A DNA stretch of 64,000 nucleotides from an uncultured Bacilli bacterium (GTDB lineage Bacteria > Bacillota_I > Bacilli_A > RF39 > UBA660). The notes beneath the pieces are model-generated. The model ran no database searches and had not been told where the DNA came from. It saw only the letters and a list, made by a program, of their open reading frames with translations. A program made the translations under genes and the position numbers. This document shows positions 5,121 through 61,712 of the stretch, one piece after another. Each line of letters starts with the position of its first letter. Positions within the stretch are counted from its first letter, which is position 1. The stretch is taken from contig CATJZL010000065.1 of the NCBI GenBank assembly GCA_949745755.1, forward strand, positions 1,185 through 65,184, written 5' to 3'.

Positions 5121-6641
5121 TTACATATTTTTTACGTCAATACGCATAAATAAAGGTTCTATCTCTCCAAGATCATAAGAATTATCTTTTTGATAAGAGA
5201 AACACTCAACAAAATTATTTAGTTGTTTCTGTATTTTTGAAGATGTATCAGGTATATAAGGACTTAAAAATAGGGAACAAACACGAATACCTTCAAGTAA
5301 ATTATAAAGAACAGTCTCAAGCCTTTCCTTAGAACTATCATCTTTAGCTAGTAACCATGGAGTAGTATCATCAATGTATTTATTACTACTACGAACAACA
5401 TTCATAATCTCACTAATAGCATTACTAACTTCTAAATTATCCATTCTCTCCTCAACTCTCTTATCAATGGAATCAATTTGAGCAATATAAGAACAATCCA
5501 CATCTTCAACTTTTCCTCTATTAACAATCTTCCCACTAAAATATTTATATCCCATAGAAAGTGTTCGATTAACTAAATTCCCTAACACATTCGCAAGATC
5601 ACTATTAATTCTTTCTATTAACAACTCACGTGTAATATTACCATCATCAGCAAAAGGAATTTCATGAAGCAAATAATAACGAACAGCATCTACACCAAAT
5701 TCTTCCACTAAAGTATCAGCATAAAGTACATTACCCTTACTTTTACTCATCTTATCATCATTCATTAAAAGCCAAGGATGACCAAATACTTTTTTTGGAA
5801 GTTCTAAACCAAGAGACCATAAAAAGCAAGGCCAATAAATAGAATGAAAACGAATTATATCTTTTCCAATCAAATGTACATCACAAGGCCAATATTTCTT
5901 AAATTCATCTGTAACATCATCTACATCATAACCAATATTAGTAATATAATTAGTTAAAGCATCGAGCCAAACATAAACTACATGCCCTTCATCAAAATCA
6001 ACTGGTATCCCCCAAGTAAAAGAAGTCCTAGAAACACATAAATCCTGTAAACCTGGTTTAATAAAATTATTAAGCATTTCATTTTTTCTAGAAACAGGTT
6101 GTATAAAATCAGGATGACTTTCTATATAATCTTCCAATTTTTTCTGATACTTAGATAATCGAAAAAAATAGGCCTCTTCTAAAGCTTCATGAACTTCTCG
6201 ACCACAATCTGGACATTTTCCATCGATAAGTTGTGACTCTGTCCAAAAAGATTCACATGGAGTACAATAAAGTCCTTTATATTCCCCTTTATAAATATCT
6301 CCATTATCATACATCTTTTTAAAAATATGTTGTACTACCCTTTCATGATTTACATCCGTAGTTCGAACAAACTTATCATAACTAGTATTCATAACATCCC
6401 AAATTCTTTGAATTTCACTTGAAATATCATCAACAAATTCCTTAGGTTGAATTCCATTTTCTCTTGCTTTTATCTCGATCTTCTCACCATGTTCATCTGT
6501 ACCAGTTTGAAAATAAACATCATATCCCTTTAATCTTTTATATCTTGCAATACTATCAGCAAGCACAATTTCATAAGTATTTCCAATATGTGGTTTAGCA
6601 GATGCATAAGCAATCGCTGTACTAATATAAAATTTTTCCAT
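5121..6641 (-). CDS. metG: Methionyl-tRNA synthetase, short form without the C-terminal tRNA-binding domain.
   Basis: A 506-aa ORF with a HIGH-type motif (AKPHIGN), a KMSKS motif and CPDCG zinc knuckles. Confidence 0.9.
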   Translation of the reverse strand: MEKFYISTAIAYASAKPHIGNTYEIVLADSIARYKRLKGYDVYFQTGTDEHGEKIEIKARENGIQPKEFVDDISSEIQRIWDVMNTSYDKFVRTTDVNHERVVQHIFKKMYDNGDIYKGEYKGLYCTPCESFWTESQLIDGKCPDCGREVHEALEEAYFFRLSKYQKKLEDYIESHPDFIQPVSRKNEMLNNFIKPGLQDLCVSRTSFTWGIPVDFDEGHVVYVWLDALTNYITNIGYDVDDVTDEFKKYWPCDVHLIGKDIIRFHSIYWPCFLWSLGLELPKKVFGHPWLLMNDDKMSKSKGNVLYADTLVEEFGVDAVRYYLLHEIPFADDGNITRELLIERINSDLANVLGNLVNRTLSMGYKYFSGKIVNRGKVEDVDCSYIAQIDSIDKRVEERMDNLEVSNAISEIMNVVRSSNKYIDDTTPWLLAKDDSSKERLETVLYNLLEGIRVCSLFLSPYIPDTSSKIQKQLNNFVECFSYQKDNSYDLGEIEPLFMRIDVKNM

Positions 6642-6644
6642 TAT

Positions 6645-6900
6645 AAATCACTCCTTATCACAAAAAAAGCTATCATAATATAAGGACGAATAATTCCGCG
6701 ATACCACCTTATTTTATAATAACTAAATTATACACTCAAATAGTTAACGCCTATCTACGATTACATTTACATATCAACATAATAGTTCAAAAGCCATAAT
6801 CATTATATAGTAATATTTCTCTCACACCATAAAGAAACTCTCTTAAATTACAAATATAATAACCTCTTTCTCATCACATTTGATATAAACAGAATAACAT
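6645..6900 (-). promoter_or_regulatory. T-box riboswitch leader upstream of metG.
   Basis: A 267-bp untranslated leader. Its minus-strand sequence contains AGGUGGUAUCGCGGAA (plus strand about 6703..6720), which matches the T-box consensus AGGGUGGNACCGCGG. A U-tract lies just before the metG ribosome-binding site. Confidence 0.5.
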
Positions 6901-6908
6901 AAAATCAC

Positions 6909-7433
6909 TTATTCCTCAATATATTTAACAAAAATATCTAAAATCAAATTTAAAAAAACCTTATCCATCTCATGAACTTCATCATCTCCAAAAAATACAA
7001 CCCCCCCAACTACATCACCATTTGTAATCATACTAGAAAAAATAAAATGACTATTTATTTCTTTTTTATCAGTTAAAGAAAGCATTGTATTATTAACATA
7101 TTCCTTTTTCCTCTCCTCCATAAAATGATAAATATCATTAGAAATATTTTTACCTACAAAAGACTCTATATCTCCCCCAGCACCACATATAATCTTATCT
7201 CTATCACATATTAATATATTTTTTGCAGTAAGAACACTAATTTTATCAATAAATATTTTAAAAACATCACGAATATCCTCTAAAGTAGAATATTTCTTTA
7301 AAATAATATTCTCATTACTAATATTAATCTCTAAAGGATCACCATCCTTTATTCTTAAAGTTTTTCGAATTTCCTTTGGAATAACTATTCGCCCTAAATC
7401 ATCTATTCTTCTTACTATACCTGTTGTATTCAT
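6909..7433 (-). CDS. spoVT: Stage V sporulation protein T: AbrB/MazE-type N-terminal DNA-binding domain plus a GAF-like C-terminal domain.
   Basis: A 174-aa ORF. Its N-terminus, MNTTGIVRRIDDLGRIVIPKEIRKTLRIKDGDPLEI, closely matches the SpoVT/AbrB swapped-hairpin domain. The length and the mfd-proximal position match B. subtilis spoVT. Confidence 0.75.
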   Translation of the reverse strand: MNTTGIVRRIDDLGRIVIPKEIRKTLRIKDGDPLEINISNENIILKKYSTLEDIRDVFKIFIDKISVLTAKNILICDRDKIICGAGGDIESFVGKNISNDIYHFMEERKKEYVNNTMLSLTDKKEINSHFIFSSMITNGDVVGGVVFFGDDEVHEMDKVFLNLILDIFVKYIEE

Positions 7434-17253: not shown

Positions 17254-19041
17254 TTAACCAATTTCTACAATATCACCAAACATCTCACTAATACTATCAC
17301 AAGTAGAATTACTAGTACTAGAAGTACCCTCATCACATTTATTAAATACAAGTGGAGGCTCCTCTATATATTTGTATACGATATTAAGCTTTTTATTATT
17401 AACAAAATTCTTAGCCTGTTCATTCCAAAAAGAATCAGAAATAATAACTAACTTTTTATCTATATCTAACAATTTCTTTAATATATTTTCCATTTGCTCT
17501 AAATTTTCTAAGGTCGACTCACATACAGAATCATACTCATAACTAATAACAATATACTCATCACTGCTAAGTCTCAAAGTTCCCTCTAATAAAGAACAAA
17601 TCAAATACCCGTATTCTTGATTAAAAACATAGTCATTCAGCTGAATAAATTTTTGCTGCATATCTTTTAAAATTTCCTTAGTAGCATAAACAAATGCATT
17701 ATTCACTCTGATTTCCATAATTTCCTTTAAATTTGAATTAAGAATAGAACACTTCCCATGAGCTTTAGATTCAAAAAAAGAATCAGAAGACTTACTCTCC
17801 TCTTTCTTATCTAAAGAAATAGAATTTTCCTTACTCTTCGATATTTCAGAATCAAGAACAACAGATTGTTTTTGAACTTTAGAATTTGCAAATTTTTTCT
17901 CCTTATTTTGCTCAGTTTCATGTGAAACTTCCTGGGAAATAATTGGTTTTATAGAATGATCTTCTTCAATTATTTCCCGGGAAATAATTGAAACATTTTT
18001 ATTTCCCAAAACAGTAGTAGACATAAAATTTAAAATCATAATTTCAATAAATATTTTAGGATTAGAACTCTTCTTAATATCAAACATTTTATCATTTATT
18101 AAATTAGCAAGAAGTTGATAATTATATCTATCTATTTCTAAAGAATCATGAATATAAGCTTCTACCAATACATCTCTCAAATAATCCAAATACTGAATAA
18201 TAATTTGAATCAAATTTTTACCAATAGAATTCCATTGATCAATTAAATCAATAACTTTCTTAAAATCACCCTCAAATATACAAGTTGATAGCTCCTCTAA
18301 AGAATTTTTTGTCACCAAACCATTTAACTTCAAAAAATCATCTAAACTAATTTTTCCATCTCCATAAACGATCAACTTATCAAGCATACCTAAAGCATCT
18401 CTCATTCCTCCATCAACAACAATGGAAATCTGCTTTAAAACATCATACTCCATTTCCACATTTTCCTTACTACACACCATAGATAAATTATCAATAATAT
18501 TTTGTTCAGTCATCCTGGAAAAGTTGAAAACCTGACATCTAGAAATAACAGTTTCAGGAACCTTTTGTACATCCGTAGTAGCAAGTATAAAAATAATATG
18601 TTCAGGAGGTTCTTCTAAAGTCTTTAAAAGAGCATTAAAAGCTGAAATTGTTAACATATGTACCTCATCAATAATATAAATTTTATATTTCAATTGATTA
18701 GGAACTAAAAGAACTTTATCTCTTAAATTACGAATTTCATCTACACCATTATTAGATGCAGCATCAATTTCAATAATATCCAAACACTCTCTATCAGCGG
18801 AAATTTTGCAACTATTGCAATCACAACATATATCACCATCAATAGCATTTTCACAAGTAACAGCCCTAGCAAACAACTTAGCAGTAGATGTTTTTCCAGT
18901 TCCACGTGGTCCCACAAATAAATAAGCATGCGATATTTTATTATTTTTTATAGAATTTTTCAGAGTTCTAATAATAACATCTTGTCCCACAATTTCACTA
19001 AATTTAGCAGGTCTATATTTTCTATATAGTGTCTGATACAT
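17254..19041 (-). CDS. dnaX: DNA polymerase III tau/gamma subunit.
   Basis: A 595-aa ORF with a Walker A motif (GPRGTGKTS), a C4 zinc module and an AAA+ core, followed by a variable linker. The linker contains in-frame copies of a 22-bp palindrome (see findings). Confidence 0.9.
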   Translation of the reverse strand: MYQTLYRKYRPAKFSEIVGQDVIIRTLKNSIKNNKISHAYLFVGPRGTGKTSTAKLFARAVTCENAIDGDICCDCNSCKISADRECLDIIEIDAASNNGVDEIRNLRDKVLLVPNQLKYKIYIIDEVHMLTISAFNALLKTLEEPPEHIIFILATTDVQKVPETVISRCQVFNFSRMTEQNIIDNLSMVCSKENVEMEYDVLKQISIVVDGGMRDALGMLDKLIVYGDGKISLDDFLKLNGLVTKNSLEELSTCIFEGDFKKVIDLIDQWNSIGKNLIQIIIQYLDYLRDVLVEAYIHDSLEIDRYNYQLLANLINDKMFDIKKSSNPKIFIEIMILNFMSTTVLGNKNVSIISREIIEEDHSIKPIISQEVSHETEQNKEKKFANSKVQKQSVVLDSEISKSKENSISLDKKEESKSSDSFFESKAHGKCSILNSNLKEIMEIRVNNAFVYATKEILKDMQQKFIQLNDYVFNQEYGYLICSLLEGTLRLSSDEYIVISYEYDSVCESTLENLEQMENILKKLLDIDKKLVIISDSFWNEQAKNFVNNKKLNIVYKYIEEPPLVFNKCDEGTSSTSNSTCDSISEMFGDIVEIG

Positions 19042-19647: not shown

Positions 19648-19659
19648 ATTTCCTCCAAA

Positions 19660-19740
19660 AAAAAGTGCACATAAGTTAAAGTGTTAAGGCTGCTATCTTC
19701 CAATCCTGACCTGTTTCCACACAACTTATTGCACAAATAT
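19660..19740 (-). ncRNA. ffs: Small (Bacillus/4.5S-type minimal) signal recognition particle RNA.
   Basis: The minus strand reads GUGCAAUAAGUUGUGUGGAAACAGGUCAGGAUUGGAAGAUAGCAGCCUUAACACUUUAACUUAUGUGCAC. The core CAGGUCAGG-AUUGGAAGAUAGCAGCC matches the conserved SRP RNA domain IV (CAGGUCAGGUCCGGAAGGAAGCAGCC). The 5' and 3' ends pair, and a U8 tract follows. Its position next to tadA and dnaX matches B. subtilis scr. Confidence 0.65.
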
Positions 19741-20245
19741 ATTGTATACGAATTAATATAAAATAGCAATAATTTTTACAAAATAATTTTATCCACAGAG
19801 TAAACAAAGCAAAATATAAAAGAAATAAGAAATAACATTAATAACCAAAATAACTTAACTCATTATTTGAATGGAATAAAAACCGTGTTCCACGTAGAAC
19901 TTAAAAAATAAATTTAACTTAATAAAGCGAAATATAACAATAATTTAAATAAAAAAATTAACATATTAAAACTTATTAAATAATTAATTAAATTTTTACA
20001 CAAATTATGTGTAAAAATTTATTATTTATTGCTATATCTGATCTTATTTATATTCAATTAAAATATTGTTTATTCACAATATTATATTTTATGTTTAAAA
20101 TATTCTTTCATTACTTATCAAAATACAGAACAGTATAAAAAAATTATTTCCTGGGAAATAATTAAATATTATCATAAATACATATTTTTTTAATATAGAA
20201 TTTTTGGATGATACAACTATGTATCTAATTTTTTTTAACTAAAGG

Positions 20246-20300
20246 GATTATAATCCACATTTTTAGTGGATATTTATAATATAGTTTCACGTGAAACATT
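20246..20300. repeat. Composite palindrome unit 1: TAATCCACA..TAGTGGATA followed by GTTTCACGTGAAAC.
   Basis: Read directly from the sequence: a DnaA-box-like pair of half-sites and a 14-bp perfect palindrome with a CACGTG core. Confidence 0.6.
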
Positions 20301-20449
20301 AAGCTGATATTTTATAAAAAGTAATAATAACTTCTTTTAATATATATACACTGCTTACATTTTATTGTATTTTTTTAACACTATACTTTTATTTGAATAA
20401 AATAACAAACAATTAACAATTCTAACACAGTTTGATTTGAATTTCTATA

Positions 20450-20500
20450 ATATAATCCACAAAATTGTGGATTATTAATGTTTCACGTGAAACATTAATA
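20450..20500. repeat. Composite palindrome unit 2: TAATCCACA-aaat-TGTGGATTA followed by TAATGTTTCACGTGAAACATTA.
   Basis: A 22-bp perfect inverted repeat of DnaA-box-like 9-mers is immediately followed by a 22-bp perfect palindrome. It duplicates unit 1 about 200 bp upstream. Confidence 0.6.
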
Positions 20501-20593
20501 TAATTGATGAAATGTACTATATTGACATAATATAAGAATACCGAAATTATTATAGAACATTTGTTTTATTAAGTCATAAAAAAAAGAACATTA

Positions 20594-23071
20594 TTAAATA
20601 ACATTCTCCTTATTGTTTTCCTCAGAGCTTTCTATGGACTCGGACCCTTCCTGAGAATCCTCTTTAGTAACTATAGCAACTGTAGAAACGCTTTGATTAT
20701 CTTTTAAATTGATTAATCTAAGCCCCTGCGTCGCTCTCTTTAGCACCGAAACCTGAGATAATGGCATTCGCATAACAACTCCACTATCTGTTATAATCAT
20801 TAAATCACAATTATCTATATTATCTATTGTTTTAATAGAAACTATAGAACCATTTTTTTCAGTCATATTTAACGCTTTAACGCCCTTACTACCTCTGTGA
20901 GTAAGTCTATACTCATCAATCAATGTTTGCTTACCATAACCCTTTTCTGTGACAATTAGGACATATTGATTAACTTGGACAACTTCTGAACCAACAACAT
21001 AACTATCAACCAAGTCAATTCCTTTAACACCACTGGCACTTCGACCCATAGAACGAACCTCATTCTCATTAAATCTTACCATATGACCATTACTAGCACC
21101 AATAATGATTTCATCAGTACCTGTAGTCTTTCTTACACTAATCAACTCATCCTCATCTTTAAGTGTTATAGCAATTTTTCCACCAGAACGAATCGAATCA
21201 AATTCCTCAAGTGGAGTTCTCTTTATTAATCCACATTTAGTAACAAATACTAAATATTTAATCTCATCTGTATTAGTATTTACATTAACAATTGAAGTTA
21301 TTTTTTCCTCTTTATCAAGCTGTAATAAGTTAATAATAGGAAGTCCCTTAGATTGTCTAGCAAATTCAGGTACTTCATACCCCTTCAATCTATAAACTCG
21401 ACCAAAATTAGAGAAAAATAACATATAATCATGAGTTTTCATATTAACTAAATGCTCTACAAAATCCTCTTCATTTGTAGCCATTCCCTTTATACCAACT
21501 CCACCACGATTTTGTGCCCTATAAACATCACTCTTAACTCTCTTAATATAACCTTTATTTGTAAGTGTAATGATAATATCCTCAACTGGTATTAAAGATT
21601 CATCCTCAATATAATCGATAGCTGTCATATCAATATTTGTCTTTCTCTCATCACCATATTTATTCTTAATTTCAAGCATTTCTTCTTTAATAATACCTAA
21701 AATTTTCTCTTCACTAGCAAGTATAGACTTCAACTCTTCAATCTCAGCAAGGAGAGCTGCAAGTTCATTTTCTATCTTATCTCTTTCAAGACCTGTCAAT
21801 CTTCTTAGTTTCATCTCTAAGATAGCTTGAGCTTGTATTTCACTCAAATTATAAGTATTAATAAGTGCTTTCTGAGCCTCCTCATCACTCTTACTAGACT
21901 TAATTAACTGAATAATCGCATCTATATGATCAAGAGCTATTTTAAGTCCTTCTAAAATATGTGCACGTCGCTCATCTTTATCTAAATCAAACTTAGTACG
22001 ACGTATAATAACCTCTTTCTGATAATCCACATATTTAACAAGAATATCTTTAAGACCAAGTGTTTTTGGCGTACCCTGATCAAGCATTAAAAATATAATT
22101 CCATAATTCATCTGAAATGCAGTATGTTTATATAAATTATTAAGTACCACTTGTGGATTAGCATCTTTCTTCAAAGTAATAGTAATCTTAATTCCATCCT
22201 TCAAATCTGTATGATAGTCACTTATCCCCTCAATAACTTTATTATGAACAAGTTCAGCAACCTTATTTTTTAAATCAAGTGTATTAATACCATAAGGTAC
22301 TTCATCAATAATAATATAATGTTTACCACGTTCCTCTTCTATACGAGCCTTACTTCGAATGGTAATAGAACCCCTACCAGTCTCATAGGCTTTACGAATA
22401 CCACTATTTCCAAGAATAGTTGCACCAGTTGGAAAATCAGGACCCTTAATATACTGCATAAGTCCATCCAAATCAATATCAGGATTATCAATATAAGCAA
22501 CACAACCATCAATCACCTCACTTAAATTATGAGGAGGTATATTAGTAGCCATCCCAACCGCAATTCCCATTGTTCCATTAACTAAAATATTAGGAAAACG
22601 AGAAGGAAGAATTTCAGGTTCTCTTTCTGTCTCATCAAAGTTAGGTTTAAAATTAACCGTATTTTTGTTAATATCTTTTAAAAGTTCTAATGAAATCTTA
22701 GAAAGACGAGACTCTGTATAACGCATAGCAGCAGCACCATAACCCTCTATATTACCAAAATTACCATGACCATCTACAAGCATATATCGATAAGAAAAAT
22801 CCTGCGCCATCCTTACCATAGCTTCATATATAGAACTATCTCCATGAGGATGATATTTTCCCATGACATCTCCAACAATTCTAGCACTCTTCTTATGTGG
22901 TTTATCTGGTGTATAACCAGATTCATACATAGAATATAAAATTCGTCTATGAACAGGCTTTAAGCCATCTCTAAGATCTGGTAAAGCTCGAGAGACAATA
23001 ACACTCATAGAATATTCAAGAAAAGAATCACGAACTTCTTTTACAATACTATTTTTTTCTAATCTATCCAT
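20594..23071 (-). CDS. gyrA: DNA gyrase subunit A.
   Basis: An 825-aa ORF with the active-site region AAMRYTE, QRR loop context and C-terminal beta-pinwheel repeats. Confidence 0.95.
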
Positions 23072-33980: not shown

Positions 33981-35861
33981 ATGGAATATGAAATAATTGT
34001 AATTGGTGGAGGACATGCAGGATGTGAAGCATCTCTAGCAGCAGCTAGAAAAAATCATAAAACACTACTTATAACAGGAAATATTAAAAATATAGCAGAT
34101 ATGCCATGTAATCCTTCAATTGGAGGTCCTGCTAAGGGGATAATCGTAAGAGAAATAGATGCTTTAGGAGGAGAAATGGCTAAAAATGCAGACAAAGCCA
34201 TACTTCAAATTAAACTTTTAAATACCAAGAAGGGCCCTGCTGTTCAAGCATTAAGAGCACAAGTAGACAAAGTAGACTACCCAAGAGAAATGCTAAAAAC
34301 ACTTAAAAACACAAAAAATTTGGATATTTTAGAAGGAATAGTAGAACACCTAATCATAGAAGAAAATAAAATAAAAGGAGTAATACTAGAAAATGGAAAG
34401 GAAATAAAAACAGAAGCTTTAATTTTAACAACAGGAACATATCTAAAAAGTACAATTTTAATAGGAAGCGAAAAGAAAAGCGAAGGCCCTCATGGAGAAA
34501 AACCAAGTAAATACTTAAGTGATGACTTAAGAAAACTAGGGTTTACAATTCTAAGACTAAAAACAGGAACACCTCCAAGATTAGATAAAAATACAATTGA
34601 CTTCACAGAAACAACAGAAGAAACAGGAGATAATATTTATCATACCTTCTCTTTTGATAACAAAAAAAATTATGATATAGAAAGCCAAGTAAAATGTCAT
34701 TTAATCTATACAACAAAAGAAACACACGAAATAATCAAAAAAAATCTAGAAAAATCAAGCATGTATGGAGGTTATGTAGAAGGAGTTGGTCCAAGATATT
34801 GTCCTTCAATAGAAGATAAAGTAGTTAGATTTAGTGATAAAGAACGCCATCAATTATTCTTAGAACCAGAAAGTATAGATAGTACAAGTAAAGATTATGG
34901 AAATACAATATATATACAAGGATTTTCTACAAGTATGCCCTATGATGTACAAGAAAAAATGCTAAAATCATTACCTGGAATGAAAAATGTCAAAATATTA
35001 AAATATGCTTATGCTATAGAATATGATGCGATAGACCCTAGACAATTGAAACCAAGCCTAGAAACAAAGAAAATAGAAAATTTATTTACAGCAGGGCAAA
35101 TTAATGGCACCAGCGGCTATGAAGAAGCAGCAGGACAAGGACTAATAGCAGGAATAAACGCAAGCCTAAAACTAGAAAATAAAGAGCCATTAATATTAAA
35201 AAGAAATGAAGCATACATTGGTGTATTAATAGATGATTTGATAACGAAAGGAATAAAAGATCCTTATAGAATGTTAACATCTCGTGCAGAATATAGACTT
35301 TTATTAAGAAATGATAATGCAGATATAAGATTAACAGAGTATGGATATAAAATAGGATTAATAAAAGAAGACAGGTATGATTTATTTAAAAAGAAACAAC
35401 AAAAAATAGAAAAATTATTCAAATTATTAAAAGAAAATAAAATAACCCCAACCAAAGAGACAAATAAATATTTAAAACAAATAAATACCTCGATTTTGAA
35501 AGATAGTATAACACTATATGATCTATTAAAAAGACCAGAAGTAAAAATAGAACATTTAACTTATTTTATAGATATTCCATTTAATGAAGAAGAAAAAGAA
35601 TATGCTGAGATTAATATTAGATATGAAGGATATATAAAAAAAGCAAATCATGATGTAGAAAAAATGTTACAACTTGAAAATAAAAAAATTCCAGAAAATA
35701 TAAATTATCAAAAAATCAAAAACTTAGCAAGTGAAGCAAGAGAAAAATTAGAAAAAATAAGACCTACCTCTTTAGGACAAGCCTCACGTATAAGTGGAGT
35801 AAATCCTGCAGATATTGGAGTATTAATGGTATATTTAAAAAGGAATGAAAAAAATGACTAA
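33981..35861 (+). CDS. mnmG: tRNA uridine 5-carboxymethylaminomethyl modification enzyme MnmG.
   Basis: FAD-binding GGGHAGCEA. The start is chosen at MEYEIIVIGG, which has an AGGTGA ribosome-binding site. Confidence 0.9.
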   Translation: MEYEIIVIGGGHAGCEASLAAARKNHKTLLITGNIKNIADMPCNPSIGGPAKGIIVREIDALGGEMAKNADKAILQIKLLNTKKGPAVQALRAQVDKVDYPREMLKTLKNTKNLDILEGIVEHLIIEENKIKGVILENGKEIKTEALILTTGTYLKSTILIGSEKKSEGPHGEKPSKYLSDDLRKLGFTILRLKTGTPPRLDKNTIDFTETTEETGDNIYHTFSFDNKKNYDIESQVKCHLIYTTKETHEIIKKNLEKSSMYGGYVEGVGPRYCPSIEDKVVRFSDKERHQLFLEPESIDSTSKDYGNTIYIQGFSTSMPYDVQEKMLKSLPGMKNVKILKYAYAIEYDAIDPRQLKPSLETKKIENLFTAGQINGTSGYEEAAGQGLIAGINASLKLENKEPLILKRNEAYIGVLIDDLITKGIKDPYRMLTSRAEYRLLLRNDNADIRLTEYGYKIGLIKEDRYDLFKKKQQKIEKLFKLLKENKITPTKETNKYLKQINTSILKDSITLYDLLKRPEVKIEHLTYFIDIPFNEEEKEYAEINIRYEGYIKKANHDVEKMLQLENKKIPENINYQKIKNLASEAREKLEKIRPTSLGQASRISGVNPADIGVLMVYLKRNEKND

Positions 35862-36501
35862 AGAAGAATTTATAAAAGAAATAAAAAAATTAGGTCTATC
35901 CCCTACCTCACTCCAGTTAGAACAACTAGAAAAATATTATAATATGTTAATAAATTGGAATGAAAAAATAAACTTAACAAGAATTACAAAAAAAGAAGAT
36001 GTATATTTAAAACATTTTTATGATAGTTTAACTATAATAAAAATAATTGATTTAAAAAAAGAAGAAACACTCCTAGATTTTGGAACAGGAGCTGGATTTC
36101 CAGGAATGGTATTAAAAATAATGTTTCCAAATCTTAAAGTAACTCTTCTTGATTCACTAAATAAAAGAATAATTTTTTTAAATGAGGTAATAAAAGAATT
36201 AAACTTGAAAGAGATAGAAACAGTTCATGAAAGAATAGAAAAATATACAGAAAAAAGATTTGATGTACTAACAACAAGAGCAGTAGCCAATTTATCAAAA
36301 CTCATAGAATATACAAAAAACATAATGGATAAAAATACTAAATTCATTCCTCTAAAAGGTCATATAGAAGAAGAATTACAAGATGTTGAAAACAAAAAAC
36401 TATTACAAAAATATGGCTTAACAATAAGAGATAAAAAAGATTTTCTTCTCCCAAAAGAAAAAAGCACTAGAACGATATTATTAATTGAAAAAAGGAAATA
36501 G
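35845..36501 (+). CDS. rsmG: 16S rRNA m7G527 methyltransferase RsmG.
   Basis: A 218-aa ORF with a SAM motif (DFGTGAGFPG). Confidence 0.85.
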   Translation: MKKMTKEEFIKEIKKLGLSPTSLQLEQLEKYYNMLINWNEKINLTRITKKEDVYLKHFYDSLTIIKIIDLKKEETLLDFGTGAGFPGMVLKIMFPNLKVTLLDSLNKRIIFLNEVIKELNLKEIETVHERIEKYTEKRFDVLTTRAVANLSKLIEYTKNIMDKNTKFIPLKGHIEEELQDVENKKLLQKYGLTIRDKKDFLLPKEKSTRTILLIEKRK

Positions 36502-36775
36502 AATAAGTAAAAAATTGAAACAAAGAAAAAGTTTCTTTTTTATTAAAAGAAAAAATACAAAGAGAAAACAAAAAGTAGAAAAAATAAATCTATATTAATT
36601 TTTTAACAAATAGACAGAAACAAAGGAGAAAAGAAACATTTATTTAAAAGAAAGATAAAAAAGGAAGAACAAAAGAACCTCAAAAACTAGGAATCGCCCT
36701 TTTGTAAGAACTATATTACTATGTTAATATACTGTCTAAGAAAGGAGATGAAACGATAGAAATAGAGAAATAAAT

Positions 36776-36805
36776 ATTTATATACAACTAGTTGTATAAG
36801 CACTA
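36776..36805. repeat. An 18-bp perfect palindrome, TATACAACTAGTTGTATA, in the rsmG-noc intergenic region.
   Basis: Read directly from the sequence. Possible operator. Confidence 0.5.
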
Positions 36806-37130
36806 TAATAAATATAAGTACAGAAAGAAAGATAAAAGAACAAACTAAAAATATAAAGTAATGCTATAAAAATATGGAGCCATTAAAAATCTCCAATAAA
36901 AAACAACCTTATAATTAATAAAAAAACGCACAAAAATACAAATATAAAATATAATAAAATAAATACTAGAAAATAAAAAATTCCATTTCATAAAAAAAGT
37001 AACATCTTTAAAATATAAAGTTTTGGCTTAGCTTTCTATATATAAATGTACTAATATTAAATTAGTGCTTTTTTTGTGAGGAAAGTAAAAATTAAAATAG
37101 ATTAGCCTTCATTTCTGTTTCCACATTTTG

Positions 37131-37163
37131 CTTGAAAATAGTTTTTTCATCTGCTATAATCAT
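37131..37163 (+). promoter_or_regulatory. SigA-type promoter for the noc-like gene.
   Basis: TTGAAA, a 17-nt spacer, then TGcTATAAT (extended -10), about 30 nt upstream of the ribosome-binding site. Confidence 0.4.
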
Positions 37164-37191
37164 AATAGAATAGAAAGCGGGATGAAAAAAT

Positions 37192-38751
37192 ATGAATGAA
37201 AATCAAGAAGTAGTGTTTTTGCATTTAGATGATATTATACCAAATAGATTTCAACCTCGTGAAGTTTTTGACGAAAAAGCCTTAAAAGAATTAGCTATAT
37301 CAATAAAGGAGCATGGAGTAATCCAACCAATTATTGTTAGAAAAATAAATGAAAGTAAATATGAAATAATAGCAGGAGAAAGAAGATATAAAGCATCAGC
37401 TTTAGCAGGACTTACCCAAATACCTGCAATTATTAGGAATTTGGACGATAAAGAAGCTGCAAAAGTAGCTCTTTTAGAAAATCTACAAAGAAGAAATCTA
37501 AATCCAATAGAAGAAGCAAGAACTTATCAAAAAATAATAGAACTAGATCAAATGACACAAGAAGAATTAGCAAAAACAATGGGAAAAAGTCAGTCAGCAG
37601 TTGCGAATAAACTAAGATTACTCTCTTTAACGGAAGAAGTTCAAAAATCACTATTAAAGGAAGAAATATCAGAAAGACATGCCAGAACCTTACTAAATTT
37701 ACAAGATGCAGAAGAGCAAGTTGAAATGCTAAAAAAAGTAATAAAACAAAAAATGACAGTAAGACAATTAGAAAGTGAAATCAAGGAAAAAACAATAGTA
37801 CAAGATAAAAAAGATGAAATAAAAGATGAACAAGATTTAGCATCAATGATAAATCCAACACCTGTTCCTCTACCAAAAGAAAATAATAAAATAAATAACT
37901 CTTTTGAAACAAAGAAATCTCCTAATTTGATGGAAAACTTTATGAATAAGGAAAATGATATTCCACCCCTACCCTCTCTTCCTAAATTATCAGAAGATAT
38001 TATAAATTATGGAGAAATAAACAATGAAGAGGATGAGGAAGTAGAAGAAAATTCTTTAGATTTAAATGGAAATAATAATACATTGTTGACAAATCCAGTA
38101 AATTTAATAGATTTAAAAAACAATACTAAAGATATAGCAAATATCAATGATACAATAGAACCTATAAAAAAAGAAAACTCAGACCTAGACTCCTTATTAA
38201 ATGTAAAACCAAATTTAATGTCCCTACAAACAGAAGAAAAAGAAGATAAAAAATTAAGCCCAGCAGAAGAAGCATTAAAAGAAAGTGAAGAAAAAAATTA
38301 TGAAAACAAAGAAGACTATTTCAAGGCACCAAATTTAATGTCTATTGACTTACCAACTACAGGAATAACTCAAAAAGACAAATTAACAGATATGTTTTCA
38401 AATCCTACAACATCAAGCAATAGTCTAATAGATTTTGTAAAAAAACCAGCTACAAATCAAGAAAAGAAAGATTCATTAACAAATATGAATCAAACATTAT
38501 TCCACAAAAAGAATGATGAGGAAGACTCAAATGTTCCTTCAAAAAAATCTTTAGGAAGCTTCCTTATGAATGAAAATTTAAAAAATAATGCAAAGAACAA
38601 AGAGGAATATAATATTCAACAAATGGTTAATGAGATACGAAAAACATTAAAAGAATTAGAATCACATGGCGCTAAAATTGACACAGATGAAATGAATTTT
38701 GAAAACCAATATCAAATATTAATAAAAATAGATAAAGACAACAACTATTAG
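37192..38751 (+). CDS. noc: ParB/Noc-like nucleoid occlusion protein with a roughly 300-aa low-complexity C-terminal extension.
   Basis: The N-terminal 200 aa form a ParB N-domain (GERRYKAS) plus an HTH (QEELAKTMGKSQSAVANKLRLL). The rest is rich in Asn, Lys and Glu, with three PNLM(S/E) repeats. The rsmG-noc-soj-spo0J order is conserved. Confidence 0.7.
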   Translation: MNENQEVVFLHLDDIIPNRFQPREVFDEKALKELAISIKEHGVIQPIIVRKINESKYEIIAGERRYKASALAGLTQIPAIIRNLDDKEAAKVALLENLQRRNLNPIEEARTYQKIIELDQMTQEELAKTMGKSQSAVANKLRLLSLTEEVQKSLLKEEISERHARTLLNLQDAEEQVEMLKKVIKQKMTVRQLESEIKEKTIVQDKKDEIKDEQDLASMINPTPVPLPKENNKINNSFETKKSPNLMENFMNKENDIPPLPSLPKLSEDIINYGEINNEEDEEVEENSLDLNGNNNTLLTNPVNLIDLKNNTKDIANINDTIEPIKKENSDLDSLLNVKPNLMSLQTEEKEDKKLSPAEEALKESEEKNYENKEDYFKAPNLMSIDLPTTGITQKDKLTDMFSNPTTSSNSLIDFVKKPATNQEKKDSLTNMNQTLFHKKNDEEDSNVPSKKSLGSFLMNENLKNNAKNKEEYNIQQMVNEIRKTLKELESHGAKIDTDEMNFENQYQILIKIDKDNNY

Positions 38752-38890
38752 GCATAATAAAACTTATGCCTTTTATGATAGAATTTAAATAAAAATAAGA
38801 TTAAGTGACAAAAAGGGACAATTTTGTTTTCAAAAAAACAAATATTTGATACAATATATCTGGTTAGAACAAAAAGAAAAAGGTGATAAG

Positions 38891-39679
38891 ATGGGAAAAA
38901 CTATAGCATTAGTCAATCAAAAAGGTGGAGTAGGAAAAACTACAACCAGCATCAATCTATCTGCATCCCTTGCAGTATTAGGTAAAAAAGTATTATTAAT
39001 AGATTTAGACCCTCAAGGAAATACAACAACAGGAGTAGGAATAAATAAAGCTGACATAGAAAGAAGTATATATGATGTTTTAACAGGAACATGTAAAATG
39101 GAAGAGGCAGTTATACAAACAAAATTTAAGAAATTATCTATTATGCCTGCAACAATCAATCTAGCAGGTCTTGATATAGAATTATTAGAAAAAAGTCAAC
39201 ATGAGCCAGGATATCAAAAACAAAATCAGTTAAAAATAACCCTAGATACAATAAGAGAAGACTATGACTATATAATAATTGATTGCCCACCCTCTCTTGG
39301 ATTGATTACAACAAATGCCCTAACAGCATCAGACTCAGTAATCATTCCAGTTCAATGTGAATTTTTTGCTTTAGAAGGAATTATGCAATTATTAAATACA
39401 ATTATGCTTGCTCAAAAATCCCTAAATCCAACATTACAAATAGAGGGAGTTTTGCTAACAATGTTAGACTCTAGAACCAACTTAGGTTTTGAAGTAGTAG
39501 ACGATATTAGAAAATTTTTTAAAGAGAAAGTATACAATACAATTATTCCTAGATTAATAAGATTAACAGAAGCACCATCACATGGTGAGCCAATAATAGC
39601 CTATGATCCAAAAAGTAGAGGTTCAGAAGCTTATTTAAATCTTGCAAAGGAAGTGATTGAAAGAAATGGAAAACAGTAA
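38891..39679 (+). CDS. soj: ParA/Soj chromosome partitioning ATPase.
   Basis: Deviant Walker A motif KGGVGKTT. The start is chosen at MGKTIAL, which has an AAGGTGA ribosome-binding site. Confidence 0.85.
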   Translation: MGKTIALVNQKGGVGKTTTSINLSASLAVLGKKVLLIDLDPQGNTTTGVGINKADIERSIYDVLTGTCKMEEAVIQTKFKKLSIMPATINLAGLDIELLEKSQHEPGYQKQNQLKITLDTIREDYDYIIIDCPPSLGLITTNALTASDSVIIPVQCEFFALEGIMQLLNTIMLAQKSLNPTLQIEGVLLTMLDSRTNLGFEVVDDIRKFFKEKVYNTIIPRLIRLTEAPSHGEPIIAYDPKSRGSEAYLNLAKEVIERNGKQ

Positions 39680-40556
39680 TATAAAAAGAAAAGCATTAGG
39701 AAAAGGACTAGAAGAACTATTTAATAGTGAACCAATCGATTATACAAAAGTAGAAGAAAAAATAATTGAAGAAACACCAAAAGAAGAAATCAAGAATATT
39801 CCATTAAAAGATTTAAGAAGCAATCCATATCAACCGAGAAAAGTATTTGACGAACAAAAATTAGAAGAATTAGCAGCATCAATAAAAGAACATGGAGTAT
39901 TTCAACCAATCATTGCAAAAAAAAGTATTAAAGGCTATGACATAATAGCAGGAGAACGAAGAGTAAAAGCTTCTCTTTTAGCAGGATTGGAAGAAATTCC
40001 AACAATTATAAAAGACTTTACAGATACAGAAATGATGGAAATAGCTCTTTTAGAAAATCTACAAAGAGAAGATTTAACAGCAATAGAAGAAGCAAATGCT
40101 TATAAAAACTTATTAGAAAATTTAAAAATAACACAAGAAGAATTAGCAACTAGATTAGGAAAAAGCAGATCCTATATAACAAATACAATAGGACTTTTAA
40201 ATCTTCCAATTGAAACTCAAAATCTTATAAATGAAAAAAAAATATCTATGGGACATGCAAAAGTATTAAGTAAATTAGATAATGCTTATCAAATAAAAGA
40301 ATTAACTGATAAAATAATAACAGAAGGATTAAGCGTTAGAGCATTAGAAGATATAACAGGAGAAAATACAGAATATGAAAGAAGAAATAAAGTTCACAAA
40401 AAAGAAAAAACAGAGAATCCTTATAAATATATAGAAGAAGTATTAAATGATCATTTAGGTACAAAAGTAAAAATTAAAACAAATAAAATAGAAATCACTT
40501 TTACAAATACAAATGACTTAAATAGATTATTAGAAATAATGCACCTAGATAATTAA
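39657..40556 (+). CDS. spo0J: ParB/Spo0J.
   Basis: A 299-aa ORF with a ParB box (GERRVKAS), an HTH and a C-terminal dimerisation region. It overlaps the soj stop. Confidence 0.85.
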   Translation: MKEMENSNIKRKALGKGLEELFNSEPIDYTKVEEKIIEETPKEEIKNIPLKDLRSNPYQPRKVFDEQKLEELAASIKEHGVFQPIIAKKSIKGYDIIAGERRVKASLLAGLEEIPTIIKDFTDTEMMEIALLENLQREDLTAIEEANAYKNLLENLKITQEELATRLGKSRSYITNTIGLLNLPIETQNLINEKKISMGHAKVLSKLDNAYQIKELTDKIITEGLSVRALEDITGENTEYERRNKVHKKEKTENPYKYIEEVLNDHLGTKVKIKTNKIEITFTNTNDLNRLLEIMHLDN

Positions 40557-52045: not shown

Positions 52046-52053
52046 AATTATTT

Positions 52054-52075
52054 CCCGGGAAATAATTAAAAAGAA
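52054..52075. repeat. A 22-bp perfect palindrome, AATTATTTCCCGGGAAATAATT.
   Basis: Read directly from the sequence. A perfect copy lies at 17978..17999 inside dnaX, a one-mismatch copy at 20142..20163 and a half-copy at 17927..17942. Confidence 0.7.
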
Positions 52076-61154: not shown

Positions 61155-61712
61155 GTGATAAAAATGAAAAAAATAATTATATTGTTAAGTGTAATAACAG
61201 CAGTATTCATAGTAAATGATTTATCAAAAGAAGAAGTAATTATACCAAAAGAGTCAATTAGATTAAGAGTAATTGCAAACTCTGATTCAACAGAAGATCA
61301 AGCTTTGAAACAAAAAGTAAAAGAAAAATTAAACAAAAATATAGAAGAACTTTTAACAAATAGTAAAAATATTGAGGATACAAGAATGACTTTAAAAAAG
61401 AATATTCCACTATTTGAAAATACAATCAATACTACGTTAAAAGAAAACAATACAAATATAGGCTATGATATAAATTATGGAGAAAACTATTTTCCAGAAA
61501 AAAATTACAAAAATGTAACTTATAAAGAAGGAAATTATGAATCTTTAGTAGTAAAAATAGGAAAAGGACAAGGAAAAAATTTCTGGTGTGTATTATTCCC
61601 ACCATTATGTTTTATAGATGAACAACAAGAAAAGAACAAAGAAGTAGAATATCATCTTCTAGTAAAAGATATACTAAATAAATTTTCAAAAAACAAAATA
61701 AAAGAGAAATAA
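61155..61712 (+). CDS. spoIIR: Stage II sporulation protein R.
   Basis: A signal peptide, then IRLRVIANSDSTEDQALKQKVKEKL and KGQGKNFWCVLFPPLCF, which are signature blocks of SpoIIR. Synteny with prfA and prmC as in B. subtilis. Confidence 0.6.
   Translation: MIKMKKIIILLSVITAVFIVNDLSKEEVIIPKESIRLRVIANSDSTEDQALKQKVKEKLNKNIEELLTNSKNIEDTRMTLKKNIPLFENTINTTLKENNTNIGYDINYGENYFPEKNYKNVTYKEGNYESLVVKIGKGQGKNFWCVLFPPLCFIDEQQEKNKEVEYHLLVKDILNKFSKNKIKEK

Follow-up and report, generated by a model that had tools for sequence, protein, structure and literature searches.

We have analysed a 64,000-nucleotide stretch of DNA (hereafter the window; contig CATJZL010000065.1, positions 1,185 to 65,184, assembly GCA_949745755.1) from an uncultured Bacilli bacterium, and we consider that its gene at 37192-38751 encodes a genuine Noc, the nucleoid occlusion protein of the ParB family. 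Judged from their sequences, the Noc proteins of this clade differ from all characterised Noc proteins in two respects that go together: the N-terminal membrane-targeting helix has been lost, and a long acidic linker has been gained. In the current model of Noc, clamps loaded with cytidine triphosphate (CTP) pull the DNA of Noc-binding sites (NBS) to the membrane via this helix, which was reported as conserved and essential, and crowding blocks the divisome (PMC4331003). The lineage studied here probably relies on a different way of coupling its chromosome to cell division.

Identity and domain layout of the Noc variant

The assignment to Noc draws on profile and structure scores, specificity residues, predicted binding sites, the C-terminal domain and synteny. 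The protein scored 292 (292.2) bits against the Noc family model TIGR04285, compared with 229 bits for the Spo0J encoded in the same window. Its best matches among solved structures were the Noc of Geobacillus (7NFU/7NG0, 216 bits) and that of Bacillus (184 bits), versus 166-171 bits for Spo0J/ParB; reciprocally, the Spo0J of the window matched B. subtilis Spo0J with 206 bits and Noc with 158-162 bits. The window has the gene order mnmE-mnmG-rsmG-noc-soj-spo0J, which is also kept in relatives. These results bear out the first-pass annotation of this DNA, which had proposed a Noc-like ParB paralogue in the conserved rsmG-noc-soj-spo0J position. The parts of the gene are placed as follows.

37192-38751, plus strand: noc coding sequence (CDS), from the list of open reading frames (ORFs); 519 amino acids (aa) plus stop
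37207-37488, plus strand: ParB N-terminal (CTP-binding) domain, aa 6-99, with GERRYKA and ENLQR boxes; Pfam PF02195 (ParB_N), E 4e-36
37495-37791, plus strand: helix-turn-helix (HTH) domain, aa 102-200, with the Noc specificity residues Q134, K140, (S145) and R162; Pfam PF17762 (HTH_ParB), E 5e-34; aligned to the Noc structures 7NFU and 7OL9
37831-38580, plus strand: acidic, mostly disordered linker, aa 214-463; inserted, and absent from the Noc family model
38581-38736, plus strand: Noc C-terminal domain, aa 464-515; helix 475-491 and a beta-hairpin in the AlphaFold2 model

The residues of both CTP motifs, G62, E63, R64 and R65 of GERR and E96-R100 of ENLQR, are invariant in alignment A1. In the ParB family, four residues (173, 179, 184 and 201 in Caulobacter ParB) set the preference for parS or NBS, and Q173 and R201 suffice together with one Lys at 179 or 184 (Jalal et al. 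2020, PMC7383237). At these positions the Noc variant carries Q, K, S and R, within GKSQS, ANKLR, LLSL and SERHAR, whereas the Spo0J of the window carries R, T, N and G. The Noc variant also differs from a canonical ParB/Spo0J, in that its specificity residues do not follow R, x, x, G and its N-terminus, MNENQEVVF, is without the LG(K/R)GL peptide; the canonical role is filled by the neighbouring spo0J gene. It shares with Spo0J/ParB (the paralogue in the window; 6SDK) the fold, the CTP-clamp motifs and the order of N-domain, HTH, linker and C-terminal domain, but it is missing the ParA-interacting peptide (KRKALGKGLEELF in the Spo0J of the window), the R/T/N/G set, the short linker and the ParB_C dimerisation domain.

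We consider that the extra sequence of this protein, approximately 250 aa (aa 214-463), has been inserted after the DNA-binding domain and before the Noc C-terminal domain. The first-pass annotation had described a disordered tail of roughly 300 aa ending in a short helical segment. TIGR04285 covers the protein in two stretches only, aa 7-213 (model positions 2-207) and aa 464-515, and the last 52 aa, searched alone, matched positions 204-255 of the 255 positions of the model (E 6e-5). Because these last residues match the C-terminal part of the family model, the extra region is an inserted linker rather than a tail, and the presumed helical segment is the Noc C-terminal domain itself, which AlphaFold2 models as a helix at 475-491 followed by a beta-hairpin at 496-513. 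The description of a long region rich in Asn, Lys, Glu and Asp holds, whereas its position had to be revised. Its largely disordered nature also agrees with the model, as about two thirds of aa 201-463 had a predicted local distance difference test score (pLDDT) below 50.

On the one hand, the protein resembles the Noc of B. subtilis and Geobacillus thermoleovorans (7OL9, 7NFU, 7NG0, 6Y93; TIGR04285) in its CTP-binding N-domain with GERR and ENLQR boxes, the HTH residues Q, K and R, the 16-bp NBS consensus, the C-terminal domain and the rsmG-noc-soj-spo0J position. On the other hand, it is without helix alpha1 and the conserved alpha2 (approximately 21 aa), it carries about 250 acidic disordered residues at a place where the family model is continuous, and its third specificity position is Ser, not Lys. 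Its score of 292 bits also lies below the curated TIGR04285 cut-off of 315 bits, and this shortfall coincides with the missing N-terminus and with the insertion that splits the match. Because of this cut-off, the protein (MCI8548547.1, from a metagenome-assembled genome (MAG), with an identical copy on 87 contigs) is labelled only 'ParB/RepB/Spo0J family partition protein [Bacilli bacterium]' at NCBI. Noc orthologues across the clade are probably under-annotated as generic ParB in the same way. The Joint Genome Institute (JGI) annotation of one relative, P0074, reads 'nucleoid occlusion protein'.

We searched the window with the 16-bp consensus NBS TATTTCCCGGGAAATA (PMC7383237), and the following sites were predicted.

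17968-17989, unstranded: NBS 1, a perfect 16-bp TATTTCCCGGGAAATA at 17971-17986 in the 22-bp palindrome AATTATTTCCCGGGAAATAATT, within dnaX
52046-52067, unstranded: NBS 2, a perfect TATTTCCCGGGAAATA at 52049-52064 in the same 22-bp palindrome AATTATTTCCCGGGAAATAATT, intergenic
20142-20163, unstranded: NBS-like site with one central mismatch (CCTGGG), 16-mer at 20145-20160

Two perfect NBS thus occur in 64 kb at 27% guanine plus cytosine (GC), where shuffled sequences gave an expectation of zero, and both lie in palindromes of at least 22 bp. The window holds only two CCCGGG sites, and both are within the perfect NBS. A consensus NBS was present in 9 of 83 related loci. For the paralogue, a perfect consensus parS site was seen at 20479-20494 and one with a single mismatch at 20283-20298.

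Further sites were seen around these. Within dnaX (17254-19041, minus strand), a parS-like 16-mer AGTTTCATGTGAAACT with three mismatches shares 2 nt with a half-degenerate NBS-like sequence CTTCCTGGGAAATAATT (cluster at 17914-17992), and the perfect NBS, there in a 28-bp palindrome, is located 35 bp downstream of this pair, so that ParB and Noc sites are nearly superposed inside a CDS. The intergenic region downstream of gyrA (19650-20600) combines the two parS sites and the NBS-like site with a small signal recognition particle (SRP) RNA (19659-19738, minus strand) and DnaA-box-like 9-mers at 19789 (perfect) and at 20251, 20453 and 20466 (one mismatch each).

Loss of the N-terminal helix and conservation of the linker

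In the alignment with Geobacillus Noc, aa 3 of the protein pairs with aa 24 of the latter, and therefore helix alpha1 (the membrane-targeting sequence) and the alpha2 region, together approximately 21 aa, have no counterpart. A hidden N-terminal extension, read with genetic code 11 or 4, was ruled out by an in-frame TGA located 9 nt 5' of the noc start and, if TGA is read as Trp, by a TAA five codons further up; TGA is the stop codon of 6 of the 53 ORFs in the window. In-frame residues of the 'KRGIF' type 5' of some orthologues proved to be a translated Shine-Dalgarno sequence and not coding. A scan of one genome per species gave 594 relatives, and the best 80 of these loci were examined. In all 80 loci the N-terminus is short, the protein is 319-639 aa long, and the Noc C-terminal motif is present. 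These proteins, and the homologues listed in a search with the extra region alone, begin only 15-25 aa before PNRFQPR; the 60 entries examined among 120 listed homologues start with M-x3-5-EVVYLHLDDIIPNRFQPR, except for three truncated entries. The absence of an evident N-terminal amphipathic helix, already suspected in the first-pass annotation, is thus a property of the whole set of 80 loci.

This absence stands against the published picture of Noc. Its N-terminus has been described as extremely conserved, with the helix predicted in every homologue examined (Adams et al. 2015, PMC4331003). Noc without its first 10 aa is non-functional, and a heterologous amphipathic helix restores the function of B. 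subtilis Noc (PMC4331003); the helix has also been described as the output of the Noc CTP switch (Jalal et al. 2021, PMC8429893). In the searchable literature, we found no earlier description of a helix-less or long-linker Noc.

The search with the extra region alone returned 227 proteins, of which nearly all those listed are 450-535 aa long with ParB_N and HTH domains, together with a few shorter fragments. When a linker profile was compared with 1.84 billion representative proteins, all 34 matches were Noc or Noc fragments that end in the Noc C-terminal domain. In this region, the orthologues at hand fall into near-identical sequences and those with an identity of 65% or lower. Linker conservation was measured on 29 sequences that are less than 80% identical to one another. 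Their pairwise identity was 0.81 in the N-domain and HTH, 0.57 in the C-terminal domain and 0.57-0.77 in islands of the linker, whereas the spacers between the islands, which are rich in gaps, reached 0.16-0.26. The islands are DLxSxINP (aa 214-222), PSFLM/KPNLM, IINYGEIxDEED, (I/V)D(L/I)xxLKxNTxDI (aa 303-316) and DLDSLLN (aa 331-337), followed by PAEEALRESE, NKEDYFxAPDLM(S/N)(I/V)x(L/M)P, SLIDF, NQTLF and KSLGxALMxE. In the window they are located as follows, together with the PNLM copies.

37915-37941, plus strand: PNLM copy 1, KSPNLMENF, aa 242-250; PSFLM or KPNLM in relatives
37996-38022, plus strand: IINYGEI island and the following acidic run, aa 269-277; NYGE invariant in A1; pairwise identity 0.69
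38089-38214, plus strand: most widespread module, (V/I)xLIDLKNNTKDI ... DLDSLLN, aa 300-341, by a local hidden Markov model (HMM); pairwise identity of DLDSLLN 0.77
38209-38220, plus strand: PNLM copy 2, aa 340-343; nearest relatives only; pairwise identity 0.16 over aa 339-345
38260-38289, plus strand: PAEEALKESE island, aa 357-366, predicted helix; pairwise identity 0.57
38311-38355, plus strand: PNLM copy 3 in EDYFKAPNLMSIDLP, aa 374-388; D375, Y376, F377 and M383 invariant in A1; identity 0.58 over 15 aa, ungapped
38422-38436, plus strand: SLIDF island, aa 411-415
38545-38574, plus strand: KSLGSFLMNE island, aa 452-461, starting a predicted helix at 454-468; L454, G455 and L458 invariant in A1

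In composition, aa 201-463 consist of 14% N, 12% K, 11% E, 11% L and 8% D; R, W and C are absent, and the net charge is -21. The first-pass annotation had singled out three PNLM repeats, at aa 244, 340 and 380 (KSPNLMENF, VKPNLMSLQ and KAPNLMSID). These are present. PNLM does not occur in the other approximately 17,700 aa encoded in the window, and any 4-mer of four different residues appeared at least three times in only 332 of 50,000 shuffles of the tail (0.7%). However, the three copies are not equivalent, since copy 3 corresponds to DYFxAPDLM, copy 1 to PSFLM/KPNLM, and copy 2 is confined to the nearest relatives. An origin by recent DNA duplication was ruled out, as there is no tandem repeat and the flanks are unrelated. 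The most conserved elements of the linker had been missed; these are NYGE, IDxxxIKxNxxDI...DLDSLL, PAEEALRESE, SLIDF and KSLGxALMxE.

The module IDxxxIKxNAxDI(N), followed after 5 to 20 aa by DLDxLL, was found with a locally built HMM in 50 of 81 Noc proteins of the clade, including those with otherwise unalignable linkers, and it is often trailed by KF(F/I)xPAEE. Most of the islands are lost in the wider clade. The AlphaFold2 model places short helices on islands at aa 213-220, 246-251, 305-310, 331-335, 357-367 and 454-468, and the rest of the linker is of low confidence. Considering the 227 matches to the extra region, the difference in identity between islands and spacers, the residues invariant in A1 and the module kept in 50 of 81 members, we consider that the linker is functional and has not arisen by drift.

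Exact repeated motifs occur in 8 of 81 clade members, and four linkers carry repeats that differ from one another at the same place in the protein. Locus L026 has an (E/D)SLFG-type repeat with seven LFG, L070 has NPFG(I)NPQP repeats with four NPF, L076 has about six tandem repeats of about 20 aa (VNEVQAEPVNMVPNVNNVQP), and L028 also belongs to this set; the linker is a hotspot for repeat evolution. The L-G-x-x-L of KSLGxALM (38545-38574) is spaced like the L-G-(K/R)-G-L of the ParA-interacting peptide of ParB, with the basic residue absent, and this is a likeness of three residues only. The idea that the core module (...DLDSLL) is a remnant of a ParB C-terminal domain (...DLNRIL) is not supported, as hhalign gave a probability of 0.5% with only three Spo0J C-termini in the comparison.

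Possible roles of the linker

Considering that the first 10 aa are essential and that the helix is found in all homologues examined in PMC4331003, compensation for its loss is to be expected. The reading that we favour, as plausible though tentative, combines clamp loading at NBS with linker islands that would dock a partner and so restore contact with the membrane or the divisome. The proposal of the first-pass annotation, that the repeated motifs would recruit a membrane or divisome protein instead of the helix, is reasonable in this light. The Noc variant would load at NBS and spread as a CTP-dependent clamp, and the linker would be a flexible platform for multivalent docking, with short motifs that may bind one or more putative partner proteins. 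Such a partner, most plausibly from the membrane or the division machinery, would then provide, in trans, the contact for which Bacillus Noc uses its own amphipathic helix.

Docking of a partner is suggested because helix loss and linker expansion co-occur in 80 of 80 genomes. Docking to protein would be preferred over docking to lipid, since the linker has a net charge of -21 and no Arg, its conserved polar positions are D, N, E and G, and a scan of hydrophobic moments found no cationic amphipathic helix in the linker, the top segments being in the folded domains. The short AlphaFold2 helices on islands of an otherwise low-confidence chain point in the same direction. Direct binding of anionic lipid or DNA is disfavoured because the linker is acidic.

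In concept, the proposal is comparable to SlmA of E. coli, a nucleoid occlusion factor of TetR-family fold that binds the C-terminal peptide of FtsZ. SlmA and the Noc variant are alike only in the idea of occlusion through a protein contact with the divisome instead of a helix, and their folds are unrelated. The nearest precedent in the ParB family for a partner-dependent clamp is KorB of plasmid RK2. Its partner KorA binds the folded part of KorB and is not known to bind linker motifs. Like the Noc variant, for which dependence on a partner is only proposed, KorB is a sliding clamp of the ParB family with partner-dependent output (KorA) and with a linker, predicted to be flexible, that joins its DNA-binding domain to the C-terminal domain (PMC11790492). 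However, the KorB linker has 53 aa (PMC11790492), compared with about 250 aa in the Noc variant, and the two linkers are without sequence similarity. The mutants KorB F249A and KorA Y84A have been used in assays of the KorA-KorB interaction (PMC11790492).

Several results weigh against the docking of an outside partner. The core module is absent from 31 of 81 clade members, whose linkers are very different, and binding of a partner would thus not be universal or would be encoded otherwise. Profile searches of the linker against NCBIfam, Pfam and PDB, with E values up to 10, returned nothing meaningful, and as the linker is confined to Noc, no shared module points to a pathway. The gene neighbourhoods of noc hold only standard origin-proximal housekeeping genes. 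The AlphaFold2 model had a mean pLDDT of 53 with an alignment of 24 sequences and is accordingly only indicative. Also, the conserved islands could equally represent homotypic contacts or contacts with the folded domains of Noc itself.

These last contacts are the basis of a rather unlikely alternative, in which hydrophobic islands bind each other or the folded domains of Noc and bridge DNA-loaded clamps into a bulky condensate or polyanionic brush. With no need of a membrane tether or an outside partner, this mass would keep FtsZ from assembling over the nucleoid or disturb its assembly there. The alternation of conserved islands (0.57-0.77) with variable spacers (0.16-0.26) is what a sticker-and-spacer layout would look like. 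Short hydrophobic repeats have arisen independently elsewhere (seven LFG in L026, four NPF in L070, besides the three PNLM here and the long tandem repeats of L076), and the linker module occurs in no protein other than Noc. Two acidic chains of 250 aa per dimer would also occupy a large excluded volume. However, the invariant polar and small residues (NYGE, DxD, LGxxL) suggest that a specific target is recognised, more than a general tendency to cohere, the charge of -21 on each chain speaks against self-association unless counter-ions or a basic partner take part, and only the 8 members mentioned above have exact repeats.

It is unlikely, in our estimate, that the linker is a passive spacer that enlarges the lumen or reach of the clamp in a protein of changed role, in which Noc would no longer tether DNA to the membrane and would instead be an additional organiser of the ParB type or regulate the initiation of replication. 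The wide range of protein length (319-639 aa) and the many members without the core module are compatible with this possibility, as are the location of NBS near oriC and parS sites and the reported control of DNA replication initiation by Noc in Staphylococcus aureus (PMC5540599). Nevertheless, strongly conserved islands with invariant residues in a family of 227 proteins are unexpected of a pure spacer, and so is the joint occurrence of helix loss and linker expansion in every one of the 80 genomes examined.

We regard two further explanations as improbable. In the first, the membrane anchor has been relocated, and an amphipathic helix of the linker (IDxxxIKxNxxDI or KSLGxALM) binds the membrane in place of the N-terminal helix. 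A heterologous amphipathic helix can substitute in B. subtilis Noc (PMC4331003), AlphaFold2 places short helices at aa 305-310, 331-335 and 454-468, and the core module, as read from the sequences, has a hydrophobic periodicity of i, i+3/4 and i+7. However, these candidate helices are neutral or acidic in a linker without Arg and with a net charge of -21, the strongest hydrophobic-moment segments belong to the folded domains, and the conserved polar positions favour recognition of protein.

In the second, direct lipid binding would have given way to protein contacts with the division machinery: motifs of the linker (DYFxAPDLM, PSFLM and KPNLM) loosely resemble the C-terminal peptide of FtsZ, and DNA-bound Noc clamps would be tethered to the membrane via anchors of the FtsA/SepF/EzrA class and compete with FtsZ for these over the nucleoid, a form of occlusion by decoy. 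The FtsZ C-terminal peptide has the consensus D/E-x-hydrophobic-D/E-I/V-P-x-F-L-R/K. DYFxAPDLM and PSFLM have in common with it only the P-x-hydrophobic-hydrophobic core and an acidic or aromatic residue upstream, and about four of nine positions differ. The ftsZ gene was not found in the window, in the 83 loci or in the 10-kb extensions on both sides.

An artefact, whether a frameshift, an assembly chimera or a fusion with a neighbouring gene, is extremely improbable and was rejected on the orthologue data: some database entries are fragments at contig ends, and nothing else was found in its favour, whereas the same architecture with the Noc C-terminal domain recurs in 227 proteins and, across independent assemblies, in the genomes of 80 species, 87 contigs carry the identical 519-aa protein, and the gene has its own promoter-like site and terminator-like hairpin. 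Because the extra region and several of its motifs are retained in more than 200 orthologues, neither such an artefact nor the pure low-complexity drift that the first-pass annotation had named as its other counter-explanation accounts for the linker.

Genomic context, host organism and significance

The window spans the replication origin, with dnaA, dnaN, recF, gyrB and gyrA on the minus strand up to 30108 and rnpA, yidC and jag on the plus strand from 30605 on the other side. The neighbours and predicted transcription signals of noc are as follows.

35845-36501, plus strand: rsmG (gidB), upstream neighbour; Pfam GidB, E 4e-52
37132-37160, plus strand: promoter-like site TTGAAA-17-(TG)TATAAT (TGnTATAAT), 11 of 12 consensus positions, extended -10; a consensus match only, 32 nt 5' of the noc start
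38750-38771, plus strand: terminator-like hairpin, directly 3' of the noc stop
38846-39679, plus strand: soj (parA); Pfam AAA_31, CbiA and ParA matches
39657-40556, plus strand: spo0J (parB), canonical paralogue with the parS-type residues R, T, N and G; best solved-structure match B. subtilis Spo0J

The spacer between rsmG and noc (36502-37191) has 690 nt at 20% GC with a strong excess of A over T, and the promoter-like site is at its 3' end. We looked in this spacer for Rfam families and credible ORFs and found none. In the lineage of P0074 (locus L081), the corresponding spacer has about 110 nt. Elsewhere in the window, a T-box leader (6679-6883, minus strand) is located 5' of the gene for methionyl-tRNA synthetase (5121-6641). 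Just past the left end of the window, in the same organism (L086, 16974-20642), a protein of 3875 aa with Dockerin_1 and peptidase M26 domains is encoded.

The best 80 loci come from MAGs of uncultured gut Bacilli labelled 'Tenericutes', 'Mycoplasma' or Erysipelotrichaceae, from human, mouse, rabbit, goat and chicken samples, and the contigs that carry the flanking genes of the window are from mouse gut. The organism is considered to be walled because it encodes a class A penicillin-binding protein, MurA and an M23/LysM peptidase. Genes related to sporulation were also observed (SpoVT, SpoIIR, GerQ, YabG of peptidase family U57, and Veg; window 6909-7433 and 61155-61712, L084 174-464, and L086 15605-16611), in a gut Bacilli MAG of approximately 27% GC from a lineage often labelled 'Tenericutes' or 'Mycoplasma'. 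The organism possibly forms spores.

In summary, the Noc proteins of this clade contradict the reported universality of the Noc helix. At a practical level, proteins of this type miss the cut-off of the Noc family, and their annotation names them only as generic ParB proteins. The motifs of the linker are now defined precisely enough for direct testing. If occlusion has been retained, it would have to proceed by another route, for example a steric brush, a decoy or a tether provided by a partner; alternatively, Noc may have a membrane-independent function here. In both cases, the range of CTP switches known from the ParB family would become wider.

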